Part shown: piece after piece, positions 3,035-36,766 of the stretch
Layout: each line of letters starts with the position of its first letter
Numbering within the stretch: the stretch's first letter is position 1
DNA from: Escherichia coli
GTDB taxonomy: Bacteria > Pseudomonadota > Gammaproteobacteria > Enterobacterales > Enterobacteriaceae
Reading direction: 5' to 3' (one strand)
Assembly: GCF_048403405.1 (NCBI RefSeq)
Contig: NZ_CP183129.1
DNA length: 64,000 nucleotides
Made by a program: the position numbers and the translations under genes
Notes under the pieces: generated by a model
Told to the model about the DNA's origin: nothing
Databases searched by the model: none
What the model saw: the letters and a program-made list of their open reading frames with translations, nothing else

Positions 3035-3098
3035 GCACCTTACTATAGCTGCTTTGGTTATTGTCAGTATTTGGCGCTGACATTCAGGGATGAAACCA

Positions 3099-3917
3099 AT
3101 GCAGCTGAGAATCATCAGTCGAAAAAAATTCACCGCTTTATTATGCGCTCTTGGGCTAATTTCCATCGTTGCAATTTATCCGCGTCAGACGGTGAATTTT
3201 TTCTACTCGACAGCAATTCAGATTAAAGACTACATCCACTTCTACGGTTATCGCCCGGTTAAATCTTTCGCTATTCGCATTCCTGCCAGTTACACCATTC
3301 ATGGTATTGATGTTTCACGCTGGCAGGAGCGAATCGACTGGCAGCGGGTGGCAAAAATGCGCGACAACGGTATTCTCTTGCAGTTTGCCTTTATCAAGGC
3401 GACGGAAGGCGAAAAGCTGGTGGACCCCTATTTTTCGCGTAACTGGCAACTAAGCCGCGAAAATGGCCTGCTGCGCGGGGCGTATCATTATTTCTCCCCG
3501 TCGGTATCCGCTTCAGTTCAGGCGCGATTATTTCTGCAAACGGTGGATTTTGCCCACGGCGATCTCCCTGCCGTGCTGGACGTAGAAGAACGGGGAAAAT
3601 TATCGGCAAAAGAATTACGCAAGCGGGTAAGTCAGTGGCTAAAAATGGTCGAAAAACGCACGGGAAAAAAGCCAATTATTTACTCAGGAGCCGTTTTTTA
3701 TCACACGAATCTGGCGGGCTATTTTAATGAATATCCGTGGTGGGTGGCTCACTATTATCAACGTCGCCCGGACAATGACGGCATGGCCTGGCGCTTCTGG
3801 CAGCATTCCGACCGTGGACAGGTAGATGGCATTAATGGTCCGGTGGATTTTAATGTGTTTAATGGCACGGTGGAGGAGTTGCAGGCATTCGTTGATGGGA
3901 TTAAAGAAACGCCTTAA
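3099..3917 (+). CDS. yegX: GH25-family lysozyme-like muramidase with N-terminal hydrophobic anchor
   Basis: ORF 3090..3917; matches E. coli YegX as recalled; start placed at the second Met (MQLRII) to give 272 aa, start uncertain. Confidence 0.75.
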   Translation: MQLRIISRKKFTALLCALGLISIVAIYPRQTVNFFYSTAIQIKDYIHFYGYRPVKSFAIRIPASYTIHGIDVSRWQERIDWQRVAKMRDNGILLQFAFIKATEGEKLVDPYFSRNWQLSRENGLLRGAYHYFSPSVSASVQARLFLQTVDFAHGDLPAVLDVEERGKLSAKELRKRVSQWLKMVEKRTGKKPIIYSGAVFYHTNLAGYFNEYPWWVAHYYQRRPDNDGMAWRFWQHSDRGQVDGINGPVDFNVFNGTVEELQAFVDGIKETP

Positions 3918-4715: not shown

Positions 4716-5654
4716 TTCCTCGCGCGTTGGCGCACAATCACCGCCCCGATGCCCGACAACCCACGACGCCACTGCATTGCCCAGTAATACGGCATCCGCC
4801 AGTGGCAGACCAGAGGCCAGCCCGGCAAGTACGCCACCTGCATGACTGTCGCCCGCCCCAATGGTGTCTACAACTTGCGTTGGAAATGCCGGAATGCAGC
4901 CAGAAGCGTCGTTGCTGAAATACCATGCGCCCTCTTTATCGAGACGAATGATCAACGGCGCGGCAAATTTCTCCTGCCATTGCTTGCCAAGTGTTGTTAT
5001 CTCTGCGGATAAAGCAAAACGTTCGGCGGCAATCTCAGCCTCCTGACGATTGAGTGACACTAAAGGTCGACAGGCCATGATCCGCGCCAGTAATGCGTCC
5101 GGGATATCGCCAATACGTGGGCCAAAATCGATAAACGGCGTCACGTCTTGCAGCTTTTCCAGCCATTCCACTAACAATTCGCCGCAGGGCGAGGCCAGTT
5201 GATAACCGGAAAAATAGAGCAGGCTGCCAGGTGCAACGGTTAATCGCGCCAACCATTGGCGATTCCACTGATTTTCCACACCGCTGAACGACATAAACGT
5301 GCGTTCACCATCCGGCTCAACCAGCGCCAGACACCAGCCGTTATCGCCTTCGGCGTTATCGATCAGGCTGATTAAGCCCTCTTTTGCCATCCGGTTGCGA
5401 ATAATCTCCGCCCACACGCCCTGACCGAGCGGCAAGGCATTACCCGCTTCGATGCCGAGGCGCTTTAACGCCACGACAATATTCAGTGCGCAGCCGCCAA
5501 CGTTAACGCTCTGCTGTTTCAGTTCGATATCGCACCCACGCCAGGGGAGGGCATAAGCGTCGGCGATCACATCAATGACCGCCGCGCCGACGACCATCAC
5601 CGACTGACGCGTGGTTAATTCAGGCAGCAGCGTGTGTAATCGAGCGCCGCTCAT
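4689..5654 (-). CDS. yegV: PfkB-family carbohydrate/nucleoside kinase, 321 aa
   Basis: ORF track; ribokinase-like motifs (DTIGAGD near C-terminus); matches YegV as recalled. Confidence 0.8.
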   Translation of the reverse strand: MSGARLHTLLPELTTRQSVMVVGAAVIDVIADAYALPWRGCDIELKQQSVNVGGCALNIVVALKRLGIEAGNALPLGQGVWAEIIRNRMAKEGLISLIDNAEGDNGWCLALVEPDGERTFMSFSGVENQWNRQWLARLTVAPGSLLYFSGYQLASPCGELLVEWLEKLQDVTPFIDFGPRIGDIPDALLARIMACRPLVSLNRQEAEIAAERFALSAEITTLGKQWQEKFAAPLIIRLDKEGAWYFSNDASGCIPAFPTQVVDTIGAGDSHAGGVLAGLASGLPLADAVLLGNAVASWVVGHRGGDCAPTREELLLAHKNV

Positions 5655-6655
5655 ACCGCCTCCCGTTGTTGACGATATTTCGCCAGCGCTGTGGCATAGC
5701 GGTTGAAATCAAGCTGATTTACCGCATCCAGTTCCGCCTTTAACGCAGGATCGATAGCGTTAACGCCATGCAACGCGCCACAAATTGCTGTCGCCATAGC
5801 ACCGATGGTGTCTGTGTCGCCGCCAAGGTTAGCGCACAGGACGGCGCAACGGTTCGGGGCGGTTTGTGCCAGTTCAACCAGCGCAATGGCGCACGGAACG
5901 GACTCAATAGTGCTGGTACCTGCGCCAACGACCTGGTAAAGCTGTTCGCTGGCGGATTCGGTGCCGTCGGCATTGCGCACAATTTTCAGCGCAATCTCCA
6001 GACGTGCTGCCAGTGAGGCGCTGAAGGTAGTGATGCGTTTTTGTTGAGCATGTCGCGCAATTGAAGGCAGTGAATCAACAATTGCTGACCAGCTTTCTCC
6101 GTCAATGGCACGAGAAATCGCCCATGCGATGACTACCGCCCCCGCAACCGCCAGATCGGATTTATGTGTCGGGCTGGAGGCCAGCGCCACATCATCAATA
6201 AAGGAATCAACATCACGCGCCGGAAGCAAACAACCTAATGGCGAGACGCGCATCGCTGCGCCGTTGGTCACGCCGTTATTTTCCAGTTCAGCAACGGGTT
6301 TACCGTCGCGAATGGCGTTAAGCGCAATCTTCGAGGTCGGACCTAGTACGTTTTTGTTAAAGGCGTCGAAACGCAGCGCCCAGTCGAGAATATTACGCCC
6401 AATCAGATCCGGATCGATCTTGCCTTCACGTTCCAGTAACGCATCTGCCAGACACAGCGCCATCGAGGTATCGTCGGTGAATTCGGCGCGGTTAAAATAA
6501 CAGGCTGCGTTATTCTCCTTTGGTCCAGGCAGAAAACGATCAATCCAGCCAAAGTGTGCTTTAACGCGGCTGCGTGGCCAAAGCTCGGAGGGCATCCCCA
6601 TCGCATCCCCTAACGCCTGCCCATAAAGAGCACCGAGAATACGTTCTGTTTTCAT
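5651..6655 (-). CDS. yegU: ADP-ribosylglycohydrolase-family protein, 334 aa
   Basis: ORF track; matches YegU as recalled; stop/start overlaps with yegV and yegT. Confidence 0.8.
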   Translation of the reverse strand: MKTERILGALYGQALGDAMGMPSELWPRSRVKAHFGWIDRFLPGPKENNAACYFNRAEFTDDTSMALCLADALLEREGKIDPDLIGRNILDWALRFDAFNKNVLGPTSKIALNAIRDGKPVAELENNGVTNGAAMRVSPLGCLLPARDVDSFIDDVALASSPTHKSDLAVAGAVVIAWAISRAIDGESWSAIVDSLPSIARHAQQKRITTFSASLAARLEIALKIVRNADGTESASEQLYQVVGAGTSTIESVPCAIALVELAQTAPNRCAVLCANLGGDTDTIGAMATAICGALHGVNAIDPALKAELDAVNQLDFNRYATALAKYRQQREAV

Positions 6656-7929
6656 TTAACTTCCCCTTGTGTCAACGCAATATCGCGATCATCGACCTTG
6701 ATAGCCGTAATTTCGTTGTCGGATTCGCGGAAAAAAATCATGAACAGCACGGCGATAATGGCAATCATCACCGCGCCAAAAGTCCACATCCCGGACCAGT
6801 TGAAAGTCAGTCCGTTTACCGGTTCCTGATAAGCGAACATCTTTTCCATCATCACACCGCCAAGACGATAGCCGAGCAAACTGCCGAAGCCCTGGCAGCA
6901 GAGCGTGATCAGCCCCTGCGCAGCGGTACGCATATGCACGGGGGCTTTTTTATCGACATAGATGTAAGCGGTAACGTAGTAAAAATCGTAACTTACTCCA
7001 TGCAGCAAAATGCCGAGGAACAGTAACGCGTAGGTGAAATATTCATCCGCACTACCGTAAATAAAGAAGCCATAGCGGATCGCAGCGGTGACCAGACCAA
7101 GTAATAATACCTTTTTGATACCAAAGCGTTTGGTAAAAAACGGCAATGCCAGCATAAAGAAGATTTCAGAAAACTGGCCGAGCGTCATCCAGCCAGTGGC
7201 GTTTTTCATACCGACTTCGGTCAGATAACCGTTGGCAAAGATGTAATAGAACGCCAGTGGCATCGCAAACAGGAATGAACAGAAGAAAAAGACGAGGAAG
7301 TTTTTATCGCGCAGCAGGATCAGCGCATCCAGGCCGAGCATGACTTTAATGTCCATTTTGCCGGTGCTTTTTGGCGGCGTGTCGGGCAGGAAAAACGCAA
7401 ACACACCGAGCAGAGCAGAACTTCCGGCGGTAATCAGCAGCGGGATGTTAGTCGGAGAGATATCGGCATAACCCAGCATTTGCGGCAAAAATCCACATGC
7501 CAGACCGGAGGCAATCCAGCCGATAGTGCCCATCACACGAATGCGTGGGAAATCACGCTCCACATCCGGCACGTTGGCAAAAGCGATACTGTTAGTCAGC
7601 GCAATGGTCGGCATATAGGTTAGCGAGTAGGCCAGCAGTAACGGGAAGAACCCGGCAAAAGTGGTCTGTTGCGCAGCGAAATACATCAGCGCCGCACCAG
7701 CGAACATCAATACCGCCAGCACTTTCTGCGCCGAGAAAAAGCGGTCAGTGATGGAGCCAACCAGAATTGGCGACAGGATCGCCGCAATGGCGGTACAGGC
7801 ATACGACCAGCCAATTTCTCCGGCACTAAAACCGCTTTTACTTAACCACAACCACAATGGCACAAACCACGCGCCCCAGATAAACCATTCAACAAACATC
7901 ATGAACGACAGCTTTGCTGTTGTTTTCAT
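6652..7929 (-). CDS. yegT: MFS nucleoside:H+ symporter-family transporter, 425 aa
   Basis: ORF track; polytopic membrane protein; matches YegT as recalled. Confidence 0.8.
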   Translation of the reverse strand: MKTTAKLSFMMFVEWFIWGAWFVPLWLWLSKSGFSAGEIGWSYACTAIAAILSPILVGSITDRFFSAQKVLAVLMFAGAALMYFAAQQTTFAGFFPLLLAYSLTYMPTIALTNSIAFANVPDVERDFPRIRVMGTIGWIASGLACGFLPQMLGYADISPTNIPLLITAGSSALLGVFAFFLPDTPPKSTGKMDIKVMLGLDALILLRDKNFLVFFFCSFLFAMPLAFYYIFANGYLTEVGMKNATGWMTLGQFSEIFFMLALPFFTKRFGIKKVLLLGLVTAAIRYGFFIYGSADEYFTYALLFLGILLHGVSYDFYYVTAYIYVDKKAPVHMRTAAQGLITLCCQGFGSLLGYRLGGVMMEKMFAYQEPVNGLTFNWSGMWTFGAVMIAIIAVLFMIFFRESDNEITAIKVDDRDIALTQGEVK

Positions 7930-30830: not shown

Positions 30831-30989
30831 TGGAGGAATTATGAAACACTGTCGGGAATCGTCTGAATGACGGGCACATTTGCGAGCACGCATCCAGTAA
30901 TAACACATGAAACTATTTTATCTGCAAGTTAGCGATAGACTGCTTGCATGGCGAAAGGAGGTAAGCCGCCGTTTTCAGCGGGACGCTGA

Positions 30990-31128
30990 AACGGGAAAGC
31001 CCCTCCCGAGGAAGGGGCCTTAAATAAGGAAAGGGTCATGATGAAGCTACTCATCATCGTGGTGCTCTTAGTGATTAGCTACCCAGCATACTAAGACTAC
31101 CAGGGCGGGGGAAACCCCGCTCTACCCT
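30990..31128 (-). ncRNA. Sib-family antisense sRNA (type I antitoxin), copy 1; ends approximate
   Basis: Minus-strand promoter-like TTGACA-17-TACTTT near 31135..31165 and hairpin gcccct/aggggc plus U-rich tail near 30995..31018; fully overlaps ibs copy 1. Confidence 0.5.
31038..31094 (+). CDS. Ibs-family type I toxin peptide, copy 1 (MMKLLIIVVLLVISYPAY)
   Basis: 18-codon ORF with SD aaggaaagggtc upstream; Ibs-like hydrophobic peptide. Confidence 0.75.
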   Translation: MMKLLIIVVLLVISYPAY

Positions 31129-31317
31129 CACTCCTGAAAGTATGCCTTCACGATAAGATTGTCAATCTGCAGGCTTTGCAGTCTGCGATCCTGCCAGCAA
31201 ATATTCTTTGCGAGACGTTACGCAATAATCACACTGGAAACTATTTTATCCGCAAGTCAGCGATAGACTGCATACAGGGCGAAAGGAGGTAAGCCGACGA
31301 TTTCAGCGGGACGCTGA

Positions 31318-31456
31318 AACGGGAAAGCCCCTCCCGAGGAAGGGGCCTTAAATAAGGAAAGGGTCATGATGAAGATACTCATCATCGTGGTGCTCTTAGT
31401 GATTAGCTACCCAGCATACTAAGACTACCAGGGCGGGGGAAACCCCGCTCTACCCT
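31318..31456 (-). ncRNA. Sib-family antisense sRNA, copy 2; ends approximate
   Basis: Same elements at equivalent positions in repeat unit 2. Confidence 0.5.
31366..31422 (+). CDS. Ibs-family type I toxin peptide, copy 2 (MMKILIIVVLLVISYPAY)
   Basis: Same position within repeat unit 2. Confidence 0.75.
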   Translation: MMKILIIVVLLVISYPAY

Positions 31457-31646
31457 CACTCCTGAAAGTATGCCTTCACGATAAGATTGTCAATCCGCAG
31501 GCTTTGCAGTCTGCGATCCTGCCAGCAAATATTCTTTGCGAGTCGTTACGCAATAATCACAGAGGAAACTATTTTGGTCACGCGTTAGCGATAGACTGCA
31601 TTCAGGGCGAAAGGAGGTAAGCCGACGATTTCAGCGGGACGCTGAA

Positions 31647-31790
31647 ACGGGAAACCCTCTCCCGGAGAAGAGGGCTTTTAATAAGGAAAGGGTTATGATG
31701 AAGCACGTCATCATACTGGAGATACTCTTAGTGATTAGCTTCCAGGCTTACTAAGAACACCAGGGGGAGGGAGAAACCTCTCCCTAACCC
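31647..31790 (-). ncRNA. Sib-family antisense sRNA, copy 3; ends approximate
   Basis: Equivalent position in unit 3; minus-strand TTGACA-17-TAATTT promoter-like element near 31800..31830. Confidence 0.45.
31695..31754 (+). CDS. Ibs-family type I toxin peptide, copy 3 (MMKHVIILEILLVISFQAY), IbsA-like but with an internal Glu
   Basis: 19-codon ORF in repeat unit 3; GAG codon read directly from sequence. Confidence 0.7.
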   Translation: MMKHVIILEILLVISFQAY

Positions 31791-31974
31791 TCACTCCTGA
31801 AATTATGTCACTCCGCCCTTAGTGTCAATCGACGGCTCTCCGTTCTTGCGAGGCGAATAGCAAAATTTTCTGCGCCGCCGGGCCTAATTCTGAAAGTTTC
31901 TTCGTTTGCTCTTATTTCATTATTGCAATCGGTATGATACCGGGCCTCAATAATTCTCTAAGAAAGGATTTCTT

Positions 31975-32634
31975 ATGAGCGAACAAATCACGTTTGCCAC
32001 CAGCGATTTTGCCAGTAACCCGGAACCACGTTGCCCCTGCATTTTGCTGCTGGATGTTTCTGGTTCTATGAACGGTAGACCTATTAATGAACTTAACGCC
32101 GGATTGGTTACCTTTCGCGATGAGCTGCTTGCCGATTCGCTGGCCTTAAAAAGAGTGGAACTCGGCATTGTGACGTTCGGCCCGGTGCATGTGGAACAAC
32201 CCTTTACCAGCGCCGCTAATTTTTTCCCGCCCATCCTGTTTGCCCAGGGCGATACACCAATGGGCGCTGCCATTACCAAAGCCCTGGATATGGTAGAGGA
32301 GCGGAAACGTGAGTATCGTGCAAATGGTATTTCGTATTATCGCCCGTGGATTTTCCTGATCACCGATGGCGCTCCAACCGATGAGTGGCAGGCTGCCGCC
32401 AACAAAGTGTTTCAGGGGGAAGAAGATAAGAAGTTTGCCTTCTTTTCCATCGGTGTTCAGGGGGCGGATATGAAGACTTTGGCACAAATCAGCGTTCGTC
32501 AGCCTTTGCCACTGCAGGGATTACAATTCCGTGAACTGTTTAGCTGGTTATCCAGTTCGCTGCGTTCGGTTTCCCGCTCCACGCCGGGAACGGAAGTTGT
32601 GCTGGAAGCGCCAAAAGGCTGGACGTCAGTGTGA
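31975..32634 (+). CDS. yegL: von Willebrand factor A (TerY-like) domain protein with MIDAS motif, 219 aa
   Basis: ORF track; DVSGS MIDAS motif at nt 32053..32067; matches YegL as recalled. Confidence 0.8.
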
Positions 32635-33392
32635 GCTGGCGTCTGGTCTATGCATCAACCGTTGGAACGTCGCACATCAGCGCGGACTTGCCTTGCCAGG
32701 ATGCCTGCCAGATGCAGGTTGCCTGGTTAAATGACCAGCAGCCATTATTGTCGGTATTTGTCGCCGATGGCGCAGGTAGCGTCTCGCAGGGTGGCGAAGG
32801 TGCGGAGCTTGCCGTTAATGAAGCGATGGCTTATATGATGCAAAAATTGCAGGGCGGGGAATTGGGGCTTAATGATGTCCTCGCAACGGATATTGTGCTG
32901 ACCGTTCGTCAGCGACTTTTTGCCGAGGCGGAAGCCAAAGAATTAGCTGTTCGCGATTTTGCCTGCACGTTTATGGGATTGATTTCATCAGCTAATGGCA
33001 CCCTGATTATGCAGATTGGCGATGGCGGCGTGGTGGTAGATTTGGGGCACGGTCTGCAACTGCCGCTCACGCCGATGGTAGGTGAATATGCCAATATGAC
33101 ACACTTCATTACTGATGAAGATGCCGTTTCCAGACTGGAAACTTTCACCAGCACTGAGCGTGCGCATAAAGTTGCAGCATTTACGGATGGTATCCAGCGG
33201 CTGGCGTTAAATATGCTGGATAATTCTCCCCATGTGCCTTTCTTTACCCCGTTTTTCAATGGGCTGGCGTCAGCAACGCAGGAACAACTCGATTTATTAC
33301 CTGAATTGTTAAAGCAGTTTTTGTCCAGCCCGGCGGTAAACGAGCGTACGGATGATGATAAAACGTTGGCACTGGCGCTGTGGTTACCATGA
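32631..33392 (+). CDS. yegK: PP2C-family Ser/Thr protein phosphatase, 253 aa, GTG start
   Basis: ORF track; GTGA overlap with the yegL stop; PP2C-like Asp-rich motifs (VADGAGS, GDGG); YegK (PphC) as recalled. Confidence 0.8.
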
Positions 33393-35329
33393 AACCCACT
33401 TTATATACTGCTACTGGTGAGTGCGTTACGCCAGGCTGTGAACTGGGCAAAGGTGGCGAAGGCGCGGTTTATGATATCGAGGAGTTTGTCGATAGCGTCG
33501 CCAAGATTTATCACACGCCGCCACCCGCCTTAAAACAGGACAAACTTGCCTTTATGGCTGCGACAGCTGACGCACAGTTGCTGAATTATGTCGCCTGGCC
33601 GCAGGCAACGCTTCACGGTGGACGAGGCGGAAAAGTTATCGGTTTTATGATGCCAAAAGTTTCTGGTAAAGAACCGATTCATATGATCTATAGCCCGGCA
33701 CATCGTCGCCAGAGTTACCCTCATTGTGCGTGGGATTTTCTACTCTATGTTGCGCGTAATATTGCTTCATCTTTTGCTACGGTTCACGAGCACGGGCATG
33801 TCGTGGGTGACGTAAACCAGAACAGCTTTATGGTAGGCCGTGACAGCAAAGTGGTGTTGATTGATAGCGACTCCTTTCAGATTAACGCCAACGGCACACT
33901 GCATTTATGCGAAGTCGGCGTGTCGCATTTTACGCCGCCAGAGCTGCAAACCTTGCCATCATTTGTCGGCTTTGAACGCACCGCGAATCACGATAATTTT
34001 GGCCTTGCGTTGCTGATTTTTCACGTCTTGTTTGGTGGTCGGCATCCTTATTCCGGTGTACCGCTTATCTCTGATGCGGGTAATGCGCTGGAGACGGATA
34101 TTGCCCATTTCCGTTATGCCTACGCGTCAGATAATCAGCGACGTGGTTTAAAACCGCCGCCACGATCTATTCCGCTGTCGATGTTACCGGGCGATGTTGA
34201 AGCCATGTTTCAGCAGGCATTCACGGAAAGTGGCGTGGCAACCGCGCGTCCGACGGCAAAAGCGTGGGTAGCGGCACTTGATTTACTACGCCAACAGTTA
34301 AAGAAATGTACCGTTTCGGCAATGCATGTTTACCCCGGTCATTTGACTGACTGCCCGTGGTGTGCGCTGGATAATCAAGGCGTTATCTATTTTATTGATC
34401 TCGGCGAAGAGGTCATTACCACCGGCGGTGATTTTGTGCTGGCGAAAGTCTGGGCAATGGTGATGGCGTCAGTAGCACCACCAGCATTGCAACTGCCATT
34501 ACCCGATCATTTCCAACCGACTGGCAGGCCGCTTCCTTTAGGCCTGTTACGGCGTGAATACATCATTCTGATTGAGATCGCACTGTCAGCGTTATCGCTG
34601 CTGCTTTGCGGCCTTCAGGTAGAACCGCGTTATATCATTTTGGTTCCCGTGCTGGCGGCTATCTGGATTATTGGCAGCCTGACAAGCAAAGCGTACAAAG
34701 CAGAAATCCAGCAACGTCGTGAGGCGTTTAATCGCGCGAAAATGGACTATGACCATTTAGTAAGCCAGATCCAACGGCTGGGCGGGCTGGAAGGTTTTAT
34801 CGCCAAACGGGCGATGATCGAAAAAATGAAGGACGAAATTCTCGGGTTACCGGAAGAGGAGAAACGCGCTCTGGCAGCACTTCATGACACTGCAAGGGAA
34901 CGGCAGAAGCAGAAGTTTCTGGAGGGATTTTTTATTGATGTTGCCTCTATTCCCGGCGTTGGCCCTGCGCGTAAAGCGGCGTTACGGTCTTTTGGTATTG
35001 AAACAGCCGCAGATGTTACCCGTCGTGGCGTTAAGCAAGTGAAAGGGTTTGGCGACCATCTGACCCAGGCGGTTATCGACTGGAAAGCGAGTTGTGAACG
35101 CCGTTTTGTGTTCAGGCCGAACGAAGCGGTAACGCCTGCAGACAGACAAGCGGTACTGACTAAAATGGCCGCCAAACGACATCGGCTGGAATCGACGTTG
35201 ACTGTCGGCGCGACAGAGTTGCAGCGATTCCGCCTTCAAGCTCCAGCACGGACCATGCCGTTGATGGAACCGTTACGTCAGGCGGCAGAAAAACTGGCTC
35301 AGGCGCAGGCTGAATTAAGCCGTTGCTGA
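33380..35329 (+). CDS. yegI: Atypical membrane Ser/Thr protein kinase with C-terminal helix-hairpin-helix region, about 646-649 aa
   Basis: ORF track; start may be 33380, 33383 or 33389, all overlapping the yegK stop; Gly-rich loop GKGGEGAVY, VAKIY Lys, HGHVVGDVNQN catalytic-loop-like, DSDSF; two predicted TM helices; HhH-like IPGVGPARKAALRSFGI. Confidence 0.8.
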   Translation: MVTMKPTLYTATGECVTPGCELGKGGEGAVYDIEEFVDSVAKIYHTPPPALKQDKLAFMAATADAQLLNYVAWPQATLHGGRGGKVIGFMMPKVSGKEPIHMIYSPAHRRQSYPHCAWDFLLYVARNIASSFATVHEHGHVVGDVNQNSFMVGRDSKVVLIDSDSFQINANGTLHLCEVGVSHFTPPELQTLPSFVGFERTANHDNFGLALLIFHVLFGGRHPYSGVPLISDAGNALETDIAHFRYAYASDNQRRGLKPPPRSIPLSMLPGDVEAMFQQAFTESGVATARPTAKAWVAALDLLRQQLKKCTVSAMHVYPGHLTDCPWCALDNQGVIYFIDLGEEVITTGGDFVLAKVWAMVMASVAPPALQLPLPDHFQPTGRPLPLGLLRREYIILIEIALSALSLLLCGLQVEPRYIILVPVLAAIWIIGSLTSKAYKAEIQQRREAFNRAKMDYDHLVSQIQRLGGLEGFIAKRAMIEKMKDEILGLPEEEKRALAALHDTARERQKQKFLEGFFIDVASIPGVGPARKAALRSFGIETAADVTRRGVKQVKGFGDHLTQAVIDWKASCERRFVFRPNEAVTPADRQAVLTKMAAKRHRLESTLTVGATELQRFRLQAPARTMPLMEPLRQAAEKLAQAQAELSRC

Positions 35330-35341
35330 GCCAGTTTTCAA

Positions 35342-36694
35342 TTAACGAAACACCACTTCCGCCCAGCGTGCCAGCCCGGCGGTGACGGAGCCAAAGTCAT
35401 CGCCGCCTGCAATCGGAATGCCCGGCAACTGTTCTGCCAGCGCCTTTTTAATCAGCGGTGAACGGGCGCTACCGCCGGTCAGGTAGATAACGTCCGGTTT
35501 TTCCTGGGCGTTATCCAGGGCCAGTTGCACCTGTTCCAGAATCCGCGCCAGTGGCTGGCTGAGGGCGCTTTCCAGCCCTTGCTGGCTAATCAGCGTAGCC
35601 AGTTCATCGCTGATAAACGGCAGTGAGGCGCGGGTTTCCGCTACGCTTGAAAGCGCAATTTTGCTCTCTTCTGCGCTACGTACCAGGCGATAGCTTAAAC
35701 GCTGACGCCAGACTTTCTGTAACAGGGCCACTTTTTCCGGTTCGCGGGCATCGCGTACCAGATCGTTAAGCAGACGACCGTTGGCACTACTGTAGAAATC
35801 ACTTTGCGCAGGGACGTCGTTGATGGCAACCGCATTCCACCACGGCAGAATCGGCAGGGCGATGCCTTTTTCGGTTTCGCCCCCCATGCCCAGTAACGGC
35901 ATCAGGTTTTTAAACGCCAGTGCGATATCCAGATCGTTACCGCCAATACGGCAACCACTGTGACCCAGCAGGCTGGCTTCACGATCGAGACGCGAACGCC
36001 ACTGCGGCCCCATCAGCAGCAATGAACAGTCAGTCGTACCACCGCCGATATCCACCACCAGCACCCGTTTTTCTTCCTGCAAGGTGGCTTCGTAATCCAG
36101 CCCAGCCGCGACCGGCTCGTACTGGAATACCACATCCTTAAACCCGGCACGCTTCGCCGCGCGTTCCAGAATCCCCTGCGCCTGGGTGTTTGCTTCATCG
36201 CCGCCAAGCCCCTGGAAGTTGATAGGGCGACCAATTACCGCCTGAGTAATCGCATCCGGCAGCTGTGCCTGCGCCTGCTGGCGAATGTGCAACATCATTG
36301 CGCAGACCAGATCCTCAAACAGCGCTACCTGCTGCGGTTTTAAGCCGCTGGCACCGAGGAACGATTTTGGTGATTTCACAAACCACACTTCTTCTGGATC
36401 ATCAATGTACTGTGCCAGTGAGGAAAGACCGAACTGCACGCTTTTCGCCGTAACATCGATATCTTCTTCGCGGTTATAACGAATCGCCCGACGCAACAGC
36501 GCCTGCGTTTCATCGTCGTCTGCCGGAACATCATGATGGCGGTACAGCCATTCGCTTACCGCTTCACGCGTTGGCGCGCAAAGCATTGAAGGCAGCAGCG
36601 TGCTGTCGTTTTCCATTTTCAGTAATTGCGGCTTACCGTCGCGCATGACCGCCACTGAACAGTTTGCTGTACCGTAATCAAAACCAATAAACAC
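35342..36694 (-). CDS. yegD: Hsp70/actin-fold ATPase-domain protein, 450 aa, GTG start
   Basis: ORF 35342..36757; start moved to GTG (VFIGFDYGTANC) to match YegD length as recalled; convergent with yegI with a 12-bp gap. Confidence 0.8.
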   Translation of the reverse strand: MFIGFDYGTANCSVAVMRDGKPQLLKMENDSTLLPSMLCAPTREAVSEWLYRHHDVPADDDETQALLRRAIRYNREEDIDVTAKSVQFGLSSLAQYIDDPEEVWFVKSPKSFLGASGLKPQQVALFEDLVCAMMLHIRQQAQAQLPDAITQAVIGRPINFQGLGGDEANTQAQGILERAAKRAGFKDVVFQYEPVAAGLDYEATLQEEKRVLVVDIGGGTTDCSLLLMGPQWRSRLDREASLLGHSGCRIGGNDLDIALAFKNLMPLLGMGGETEKGIALPILPWWNAVAINDVPAQSDFYSSANGRLLNDLVRDAREPEKVALLQKVWRQRLSYRLVRSAEESKIALSSVAETRASLPFISDELATLISQQGLESALSQPLARILEQVQLALDNAQEKPDVIYLTGGSARSPLIKKALAEQLPGIPIAGGDDFGSVTAGLARWAEVVFR

Positions 36695-36766
36695 GAAATA
36701 ATCCCCATGCCGGTGAAGAAGGGGCGTGACTTTAGCGAAATGTTGCCGTCGCGACAACCGGAATAT

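Follow-up and report, generated by a model that had tools for sequence, protein, structure and literature searches.

In Escherichia coli, the genes yegL, pphC (also known as yegK) and yegI constitute a TerY-P-type Ser/Thr phospho-switch, a self-contained unit of three genes for a vWA protein, a PP2C-type phosphatase and an atypical kinase. The kinase, YegI, is anchored in the inner membrane, with its kinase domain, zinc ribbon, coiled coil and helix-hairpin-helix module, (HhH)2, all facing the cytoplasm. We analyzed the triad in a 64,000-nucleotide stretch of an E. coli genome (RefSeq assembly GCF_048403405.1, contig NZ_CP183129.1), hereafter the window, whose DNA is 100% identical to that of E. 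coli WP4-S18-ESBL-07. By analogy with other TerY-P triads, we favour a role in a conflict or stress response to invading DNA, phage or damaged DNA, to which we assign a probability of roughly 0.45.

The triad and its relation to TerY-P

The sequence-only reading of this DNA had placed three co-directional genes with overlapping stop and start codons at 31975-35329, which is correct to the base:

31975-32634, plus strand: yegL, 219 aa, TerY-type vWA protein (ORF list, Pfam VWA)
32631-33392, plus strand: pphC (yegK), 253 aa, PP2C-type Ser/Thr phosphatase with a GTG start (ORF list, Pfam)
33389-35329, plus strand: yegI, 646 aa, atypical Hanks-type Ser/Thr kinase with an ATG start (sequence)

The same reading likened this gene composition to the TerY-P triad, a likeness borne out by homology: each of the three proteins matches its counterpart in the triad of ter plasmids, and the order is the same. 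As control triads we used those of the ter plasmid pRAO166a (TerY1, TerX, TerY2, TerY3, PP2C, kinase) and of a Rhizobium plasmid. YegL is 32% identical to TerY1 of pRAO166a over 181 aa (E=7e-27), and tblastn with YegL retrieves ‘tellurium resistance protein TerY’ at 1e-15 to 1e-16. PphC is 26% identical to the ter-linked PP2C domain (E=5e-6), while the YegI family profile aligns with the ter-linked kinase over 318 columns that include the zinc ribbon/CxxC region (hhalign probability 99.0%, E=5.3e-18). The gene order vWA, PP2C, kinase is identical in the window and the ter plasmid. Because all three proteins are homologous to the ter triad and the gene order is shared, the operon can be assigned, as judged from sequence homology, to the TerY-P kind in the broad sense, i.e. 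by the definition of Anantharaman, Iyer and Aravind (2012) as summarised in PMC11090510 and PMC4978471. A literature search found no work connecting yegL with TerY.

Profile searches gave a different picture. It had been proposed that the lack of significant similarity to TerY-P profiles would refute the assignment and, taken formally, this is the outcome: there is no significant PADLOC match, the TerY model giving only a partial one to YegL (E=0.013, 13 bits). The PADLOC models of the TerY-P phosphatase and kinase match neither PphC nor YegI; PphC falls into no PADLOC family, and YegI has only weak matches to PD-T4-6 and MkoA kinase (2e-4 to 5e-3). It should be noted, however, that the same profiles also miss the ter-operon triad of pRAO166a and the Rhizobium plasmid triad. 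Since even a canonical ter-operon triad goes undetected, the PADLOC negative is uninformative and too narrow to refute the broad assignment. The operon lies outside the narrower TerY-P family of Gao/PADLOC, and the architecture of YegI departs from that of the described TerY-P kinases.

At the yegL/pphC junction (GTGA), the GTG of pphC overlaps the TGA of yegL by four bases; at the pphC/yegI junction (ATGA), the ATG of yegI overlaps the TGA of pphC. From these stop/start overlaps, translational coupling of the three genes can reasonably be inferred. yegL is preceded by a Shine-Dalgarno sequence (AAGGA) and pphC by a distant AAGG, while inspection of the sequence found none recognisable before yegI. 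The longest open reading frame (ORF) over yegI spans 33380-35329 on the plus strand; the genuine start is the ATG at 33389, and an identical 646-aa protein is publicly named ‘protein kinase YegI’. The start of pphC lies in a GUGUG context (32627-32634), and the gene is listed among sites with predicted ambiguous initiation (PMC9841429). RefSeq uses the gene names yegL, pphC and yegI and the product name ‘protein-serine/threonine phosphatase PphC’; the locus is thus already annotated, and it is partly characterised (Rajagopalan and Dworkin). The observed three-gene arrangement, with its domains, is far beyond chance.

YegL matches Pfam VWA (2e-9) and VWA_2, and the vWA protein with an intact metal ion-dependent adhesion site (MIDAS) expected from the sequence is indeed present: DVSGS at 27-31 (D27-x-S29-x-S31), T94 and D131 are all invariant among 18 paired sequences spanning archaea-to-bacteria diversity. 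Across bacteria and archaea, the median identity to the E. coli protein is 66.5% for YegL, 40.7% for PphC and 39.1% for YegI; by this measure, the uncharacterised vWA protein is by far the most conserved and constrained member of the triad. Its two tails, aa 1-16 (31975-32022) and aa 204-219 (32584-32631), are highly conserved and yet predicted to be disordered by AlphaFold2 (pLDDT, short for predicted local distance difference test, <50). The residues invariant from E. coli to distant phyla are Q4, F7, F12, A13, N15, E17 and R19 in or near the N-terminal tail, and S200, S202, P204, G205, P213, G215 and W216 in or near the C-terminal tail. Conserved-but-disordered tails of this kind, as modelled, are a pattern typical of docking or phospho-acceptor peptides, and they represent candidate motifs.

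To our knowledge, very few Ser/Thr kinases and phosphatases have been described in E. coli, and YegI and PphC are two of them. The PP2C phosphatase identity of PphC is confirmed by a match to Pfam PP2C_2 at 1.8e-50. In published work, PphC is active as a PP2C-like phosphatase and removes the phosphates of autophosphorylated YegI in vitro (bioRxiv 10.1101/303594). YegI is an active, Mn2+-preferring kinase with second-order kinetics; its HRD and DFG motifs are replaced by VGD and DSD, its autophosphorylation sites are S153, S160 and S162, and it spans the membrane twice with both termini in the cytoplasm, as determined by PhoA-LacZ topology (bioRxiv 10.1101/819920). The statement that the proteins are only partly characterised individually, with no function for the module, agrees with the literature, which covers kinase and phosphatase biochemistry only: the function of the module is not known, and no inducing condition, substrate or phenotype has been established (bioRxiv 10.1101/303594, 10.1101/819920; PMC13232886).

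The architecture of YegI was examined in an AlphaFold2 model built from 75 relatives (mean pLDDT 93.9, predicted TM-score, pTM, 0.80), and comprises the following segments:

33389-34294, plus strand: kinase domain, aa 1-302 (G-loop 20-25, K39, D141, and D159-S-D161-S162 in place of DFG)
34298-34378, plus strand: zinc ribbon, aa 304-330 (C307, H313, C322, C325)
34556-34681, plus strand: membrane hairpin, aa ~390-431, two hydrophobic helices with a 5-residue loop (hydropathy, AlphaFold2)
34682-34921, plus strand: cytosolic helical (coiled-coil-like) segment, aa 432-511, long helices (AlphaFold2)
34931-35101, plus strand: (HhH)2 module, aa 515-571, putative non-sequence-specific DNA-binding domain
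35135-35323, plus strand: C-terminal long helix, aa 583-645, a single helix in the AlphaFold2 model

The Pfam Pkinase profile does not match YegI, whose sole Pfam hit is HHH_5 (residues 515-550, E=0.0025), while 28 of 34 YegI relatives are matched by Pkinase at E<=0.001. Foldseek with the YegI model retrieves PknB, BRAF and Src at E values of about 1e-7 to 1e-6 and target-normalised TM-scores of 0.65-0.73; for PknB 5u94, E is 4.6e-7 and the TM-score, normalised to the target, is 0.69. K39, D141, D159, D161 and S162 never vary among relatives of 33-62% identity. YegI therefore has the bilobal kinase fold and the catalytic Lys and Asp, and lacks the canonical HRD and DFG motifs. Together with the two hydrophobic helices at ~390-431, this upholds its description as an atypical membrane Ser/Thr kinase. 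At aa 145-146 (33821-33826), E. coli and its nearest relatives have N145-S146, and most of the family has the canonical Asn 146 (GDVNQGN); by these alignments, the ‘missing Asn’ of the literature is specific to the E. coli clade and not family-wide.

The zinc ligands C307, H313, C322 and C325 are invariant both in the 75 relatives and in 34 diverse relatives, and the ribbon is modelled as two short strands and a helix, followed by a linker that leads to the hairpin. Modelled helices cover 389-408 and 414 onwards in the hairpin, followed through the cytosolic segment as 414-465, 467-485, 487-500 and 502-511 (pLDDT >90). As the hydrophobic helices are joined by a loop of only five residues, YegI has no periplasmic sensor domain. 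The (HhH)2 module is recognised as HHH_5 in YegI relatives (best 9.8e-6) and has conserved glycine motifs (GIGP...PGFG), and ‘helix-hairpin-helix domain-containing protein’ is among the names used in public records. Searched against the PDB, the C-terminal third gives a weak match only, to the Rad51 N-terminal HhH domain (E=0.28), and Foldseek with full-length YegI returns kinases only. Among relatives, the C-terminal module is swapped for SH3, TPR or topoisomerase-type zinc-finger domains.

The wider family and its genomic neighbourhoods

Relatives of YegI are numerous, with 3187 found at E<=1e-30 among representatives of 50%-identity clusters, mostly of ~646 aa. Scanning one genome per species places the family in at least 510 species, distributed over Proteobacteria, Actinobacteria, Planctomycetota, Acidobacteria, Cyanobacteria, Clostridiales, Synergistaceae and the Methanomicrobiales archaea. 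The order vWA-PP2C-kinase is kept in every related locus that has upstream DNA. A conserved fourth (effector) gene was sought and rejected, since the largest family of flanking genes occurs in 10 of 85 loci, all of them Competibacteraceae; yegD is linked to the triad only in Escherichia. The family is also present on 83 plasmid records, 46 of them conjugative, and one copy is cargo adjoining a Tn7-like element. Identity to relatives is 91% within Escherichia and then drops to 62% in Klebsiella spallanzanii, with none intermediate. The three genes thus form an indivisible, self-contained and horizontally spreading unit.

Phage-borne copies are essentially absent among 50,697 phage records. The sole case there is MT836238.1, an 11.7-kb unannotated ‘Bacteriophage sp.’ contig from human faeces, where genes for a YegL-like vWA protein (44% identity) and a YegI-like kinase domain (27% identity) lie ~900 bases apart within 5431-7860.

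Of 76 non-redundant loci, at least 13 have defence genes as neighbours of the triad, a raw count from a limited query set with no matched background. Triad loci with such neighbours are:

Klebsiella spallanzanii: GmrSD, type I restriction-modification (RM), SymE
Piscinibacter: BrxR, JetB, ScoMcrA, SLFN-type helicase
Chromobacterium: AbiH, KAP NTPase
Metagenome contig: type I RM, Mrr
Rhizobium rhizogenes plasmid: Gabija-like genes, Hxs, DUF262
Pseudomonas alcaligenes: complete Gabija system (GajA 3e-215, GajB 1e-221)
Cyanobacterium: type I restriction endonuclease

The association with defence is recurrent but not dominant.

Candidate roles of the triad

If the triad acts in conflict or stress, the switch could work as follows. 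The (HhH)2 tail would tether the kinase to membrane-adjacent DNA, either incoming foreign DNA or perturbed chromosomal DNA, and DNA binding would lead to dimerisation and trans-autophosphorylation of YegI. PphC would hold the switch off or reset it, whereas the MIDAS metal site of YegL, together with the conserved disordered tails, may serve to bind the phosphorylated kinase or the kinase's targets, or to gate them. The output would be the phosphorylation of further proteins by YegI. In Escherichia, the cassette may have arrived in a single event and settled between mdtA and yegD as a core operon that stays almost silent in the laboratory.

This conflict/stress reading is put forward because of the homology to the ter triad, the self-contained nature and mobility of the family, its recurrent defence neighbours, the low dN/dS (0.03-0.18) that marks the genes as functional, and the possible link of (HhH)2 to DNA. 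The last of these is suggested by the domain itself, by the topoisomerase-type zinc finger found at the same position in relatives, and by the ‘DNA-damage-up’ literature, in which overproduced YegL and YegI each raise endogenous DNA damage (bioRxiv 10.1101/354589). Furthermore, other TerY-P triads protect against T7-like phages (PMC7699616; PMC10889362).

Several observations weigh against the conflict/stress reading. Among 5426 complete E. coli genomes, 5416 carry the triad, as a single-copy, chromosomal operon at a fixed site, and core status at a fixed site is atypical for defence systems. Unusual divergence of the E. coli triad was considered and rejected, as its identity-band profile is the same as that of the flanking mdtB. 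In 1934 of the 5426 genomes, K-12 included, pphC and yegI are separated by yegJ, whose insertion in opposite orientation destroys the ATGA overlap; the window carries the uninterrupted pphC-yegI form (junction 33389-33392). The operon is essentially unexpressed, with a PphC abundance of 0.004 parts per million (PMC9841429) and no consensus promoter upstream. Defence neighbours accompany only ~17% of related loci, again as a raw count without a matched background, and many lineages, among them Paraburkholderia, Competibacteraceae and Methanoregula, hold the triad in stable settings outside defence. Nor do the PADLOC models match. The HhH domain is a putative DNA binder, and some relatives have SH3 or TPR at that place. 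When YegL, PphC and YegI(1-345) were fused in one chain and modelled with AlphaFold2 from a shallow alignment of 18 paired sequences, the domains folded (mean pLDDT 81.5) and no confident complex was predicted (pTM 0.46). No phage, plasmid or stress phenotype of the E. coli operon is known, and an antiviral role is not established for the YegLKI clade, which is core in E. coli and has defence neighbours in a minority of loci.

The main rival, possible although doubtful, is a host-directed housekeeping signal, in which the membrane-anchored kinase/phosphatase pair and the vWA adaptor would report the state of the envelope or nucleoid (e.g. stationary phase, DNA damage or transertion) and tune host proteins, with no anti-phage or anti-plasmid role. 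The core, single-copy and chromosomal status of the triad in 99.8% of E. coli genomes is what such a role would lead one to expect. The genes also evolve like the mdtB flank. The ratio of nonsynonymous to synonymous substitution (dN/dS) within Escherichia is 0.03-0.09 for yegL, 0.13-0.18 for pphC and 0.11-0.18 for yegI, values that point to purifying selection on all three and, being as low as 0.03-0.18, to functional genes. In several other lineages, the triad has a stable context peculiar to the lineage, and most related loci are without recognisable defence neighbours. In addition, weak stationary-phase expression has been reported (bioRxiv 10.1101/819920), and regulatory links have been described for yegJ and yegD (PMC13232886). 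On the other hand, housekeeping modules are rarely as mobile as this family, with its patchy distribution across phyla and domains, its plasmid copies and its Tn7-like element. The recurrence of the triad beside RM, Gabija, AbiH and BrxR and its homology to TerY-P triads with published anti-phage activity (PMC7699616; PMC10889362) also speak against a housekeeping role, for which neither a growth phenotype nor a substrate is known.

In a more far-reaching reading, triads of the YegLKI type would make up a very large immune or anti-mobile-DNA family, missed by the defence catalogues, that senses DNA at the inner face of the inner membrane; at more than 3000 clusters at 50% identity, it would extend over bacteria and methanogenic archaea. 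The trigger would be the injection of a phage genome or the entry of a plasmid, and the answer would be Ser/Thr phosphorylation. We consider this broader proposal unlikely. Were it true, almost every E. coli would carry YegLKI as a silent core immune module.

Two further explanations are less likely than either the conflict/stress or the housekeeping reading. In the first, which is improbable, the triad would sense a metal or a tellurite-type chemical stress, like the ter operon, with the MIDAS of YegL detecting the metal and switching the kinase/phosphatase pair. YegL is homologous to TerY of tellurite-resistance plasmids, its MIDAS motif is invariant, and DUF4236 proteins occur both in the ter cluster and beside some triads; YegI prefers Mn2+ (bioRxiv 10.1101/819920), and this was the original TerY-P hypothesis as summarised in PMC11090510. 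Nevertheless, no ter genes (terZABCDEF, terW, terX) lie beside the triad in E. coli or in the ~80 related loci examined, and no tellurite phenotype is known. From general knowledge of vWA proteins, moreover, sensing free metal is a less common role for MIDAS sites than binding protein ligands that are acidic or phosphorylated.

The second, a once-mobile cassette fixed in Escherichia and no longer used there, is very improbable. In its favour, no expression condition is known in the literature, PphC is as scarce as noted above, yegJ breaks the pphC-yegI junction in 36% of genomes, and yegI is reported to be mutated repeatedly in long-term evolution lines (bioRxiv 10.1101/303594). Against it, ~5400 of the 5426 genomes have intact reading frames, dN/dS stays low even between Escherichia species, and both enzymes are active in vitro (bioRxiv 10.1101/303594, 10.1101/819920). 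A literature search found no other work tying yegI to the long-term evolution experiment.

What is new here is that YegLKI is a true relative of TerY-P and part of a very large clade of bacteria and archaea that always keeps the triad whole and has no conserved fourth gene. Also new are the finding that the vWA protein is the most constrained member, the architecture of a kinase with a membrane hairpin, a coiled coil and a putative DNA-binding (HhH)2 tail, and the presence of defence neighbours at some of the related loci. A specialist would not be very surprised by these findings, which open an orphan E. coli kinase/phosphatase pair to direct and cheap tests. An anti-phage or anti-plasmid role, if true, would make the operon a core, nearly silent E. 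coli immune system and add a large family that is absent from PADLOC-type catalogues. If the role is not defence, TerY-P-like triads would include housekeeping signalling, a caution against calling defence by domain architecture alone.

In the window, the triad is surrounded by mdtAB, sib/ibs, yegD and alkA, and has no ter genes nearby. The sequence-only reading also noted its adjacency to an ibs/sib locus, and three SIB RNA/ibs copies do lie directly upstream of yegL:

31023-31828, minus strand: three tandem SIB antitoxin RNAs between mdtA and yegL (Rfam RF00113, 141-146 bits)

The individual SIB RNAs are at 31023-31165, 31351-31493 and 31680-31828, with the ibs toxin ORFs on the plus strand. 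The region 30906-31830 thus holds three copies of this sib/ibs type I toxin-antitoxin pair, compared with two annotated ibs genes in a K-12-like genome. A promoter scan found no consensus sigma-70 promoter upstream of yegL, and no terminator-like hairpin is present in the 12-base gap (35330-35341) between the convergent stops of yegI and yegD. The yegD ORF as called is 35342-36757; since the family model covers only aa 22-471, the real start probably lies downstream of the called one. In the K-12-like genome (locus L092), yegJ is at 3058-3519, and one record has an IS1 inside yegJ. A DUF4236 protein is encoded next to terW in the IncHI2 ter cluster (L010, 7838-9046). DUF4236 also occurs near YegLKI-type triads, in 4 of 148 nearest-neighbour ORFs and as a flank cluster of five loci; the triad loci with DUF4236 in their flanks are L018, L024, L027, L056, L072 and L074.

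Comparison with known systems

The TerY-P of ter clusters (IncHI2/IncU-type plasmids) has the vWA-PP2C-kinase order in common with YegLKI, and its kinase and zinc ribbon are homologous to those of YegI. It differs in having three TerY paralogues and TerX and in lying inside the ter cluster, whereas the E. coli operon has no ter neighbours. In addition, the ter-linked PP2C carries an N-terminal extension of ~320 aa, and the ter-linked kinase, at 499 aa, lacks the membrane hairpin and HhH.

Like YegLKI, the TerY-P of Gao et al. (2020) combines these three domain types in a stand-alone three-gene cassette. It is active against T7-like phages (PMC7699616; PMC11090510); for yegLKI, our literature search found no report of an anti-phage test. 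The kinase of the Gao type ends in an OB fold (PMC11090510), whereas YegI continues into the zinc ribbon, membrane hairpin, coiled coil and (HhH)2.

CoCoNuT (McrBC-like) systems of types II and III-A embed a TerY-like vWA protein, a PP2C and a kinase with a C-terminal zinc ribbon (PMC11090510), and this kinase-zinc ribbon junction is also found in YegI. The CoCoNuT triad is, however, an accessory of a large restriction operon, while triads of the YegLKI type have no conserved partners and possess a membrane anchor and an HhH tail.

The ‘TerY-P variant’ of P. aeruginosa (Costa et al. 2024) protects against Autographiviridae with little cell death (PMC10889362); it is a three-gene TerY-P-like cassette that escapes both PADLOC and DefenseFinder. 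Exact scans of metagenome contigs for its two published sequencing primers gave no match, and the best relatives found for a YegI homologue from Pseudomonas include no P. aeruginosa protein. The variant probably belongs to a different clade from YegLKI.

Finally, the PknB-PstP and PrkC-PrpC pairs resemble YegI-PphC in that an adjacent kinase and PP2C are co-transcribed, the phosphatase acts on the autophosphorylated kinase, and the kinase fold matches. Kinases of the PknB/PrkC type have one transmembrane helix and extracellular PASTA sensors, whereas YegI has a hairpin, both ends in the cytosol and no outside domain. Furthermore, YegI has DSD in place of DFG, and the PknB-PstP and PrkC-PrpC pairs have no obligatory vWA partner.

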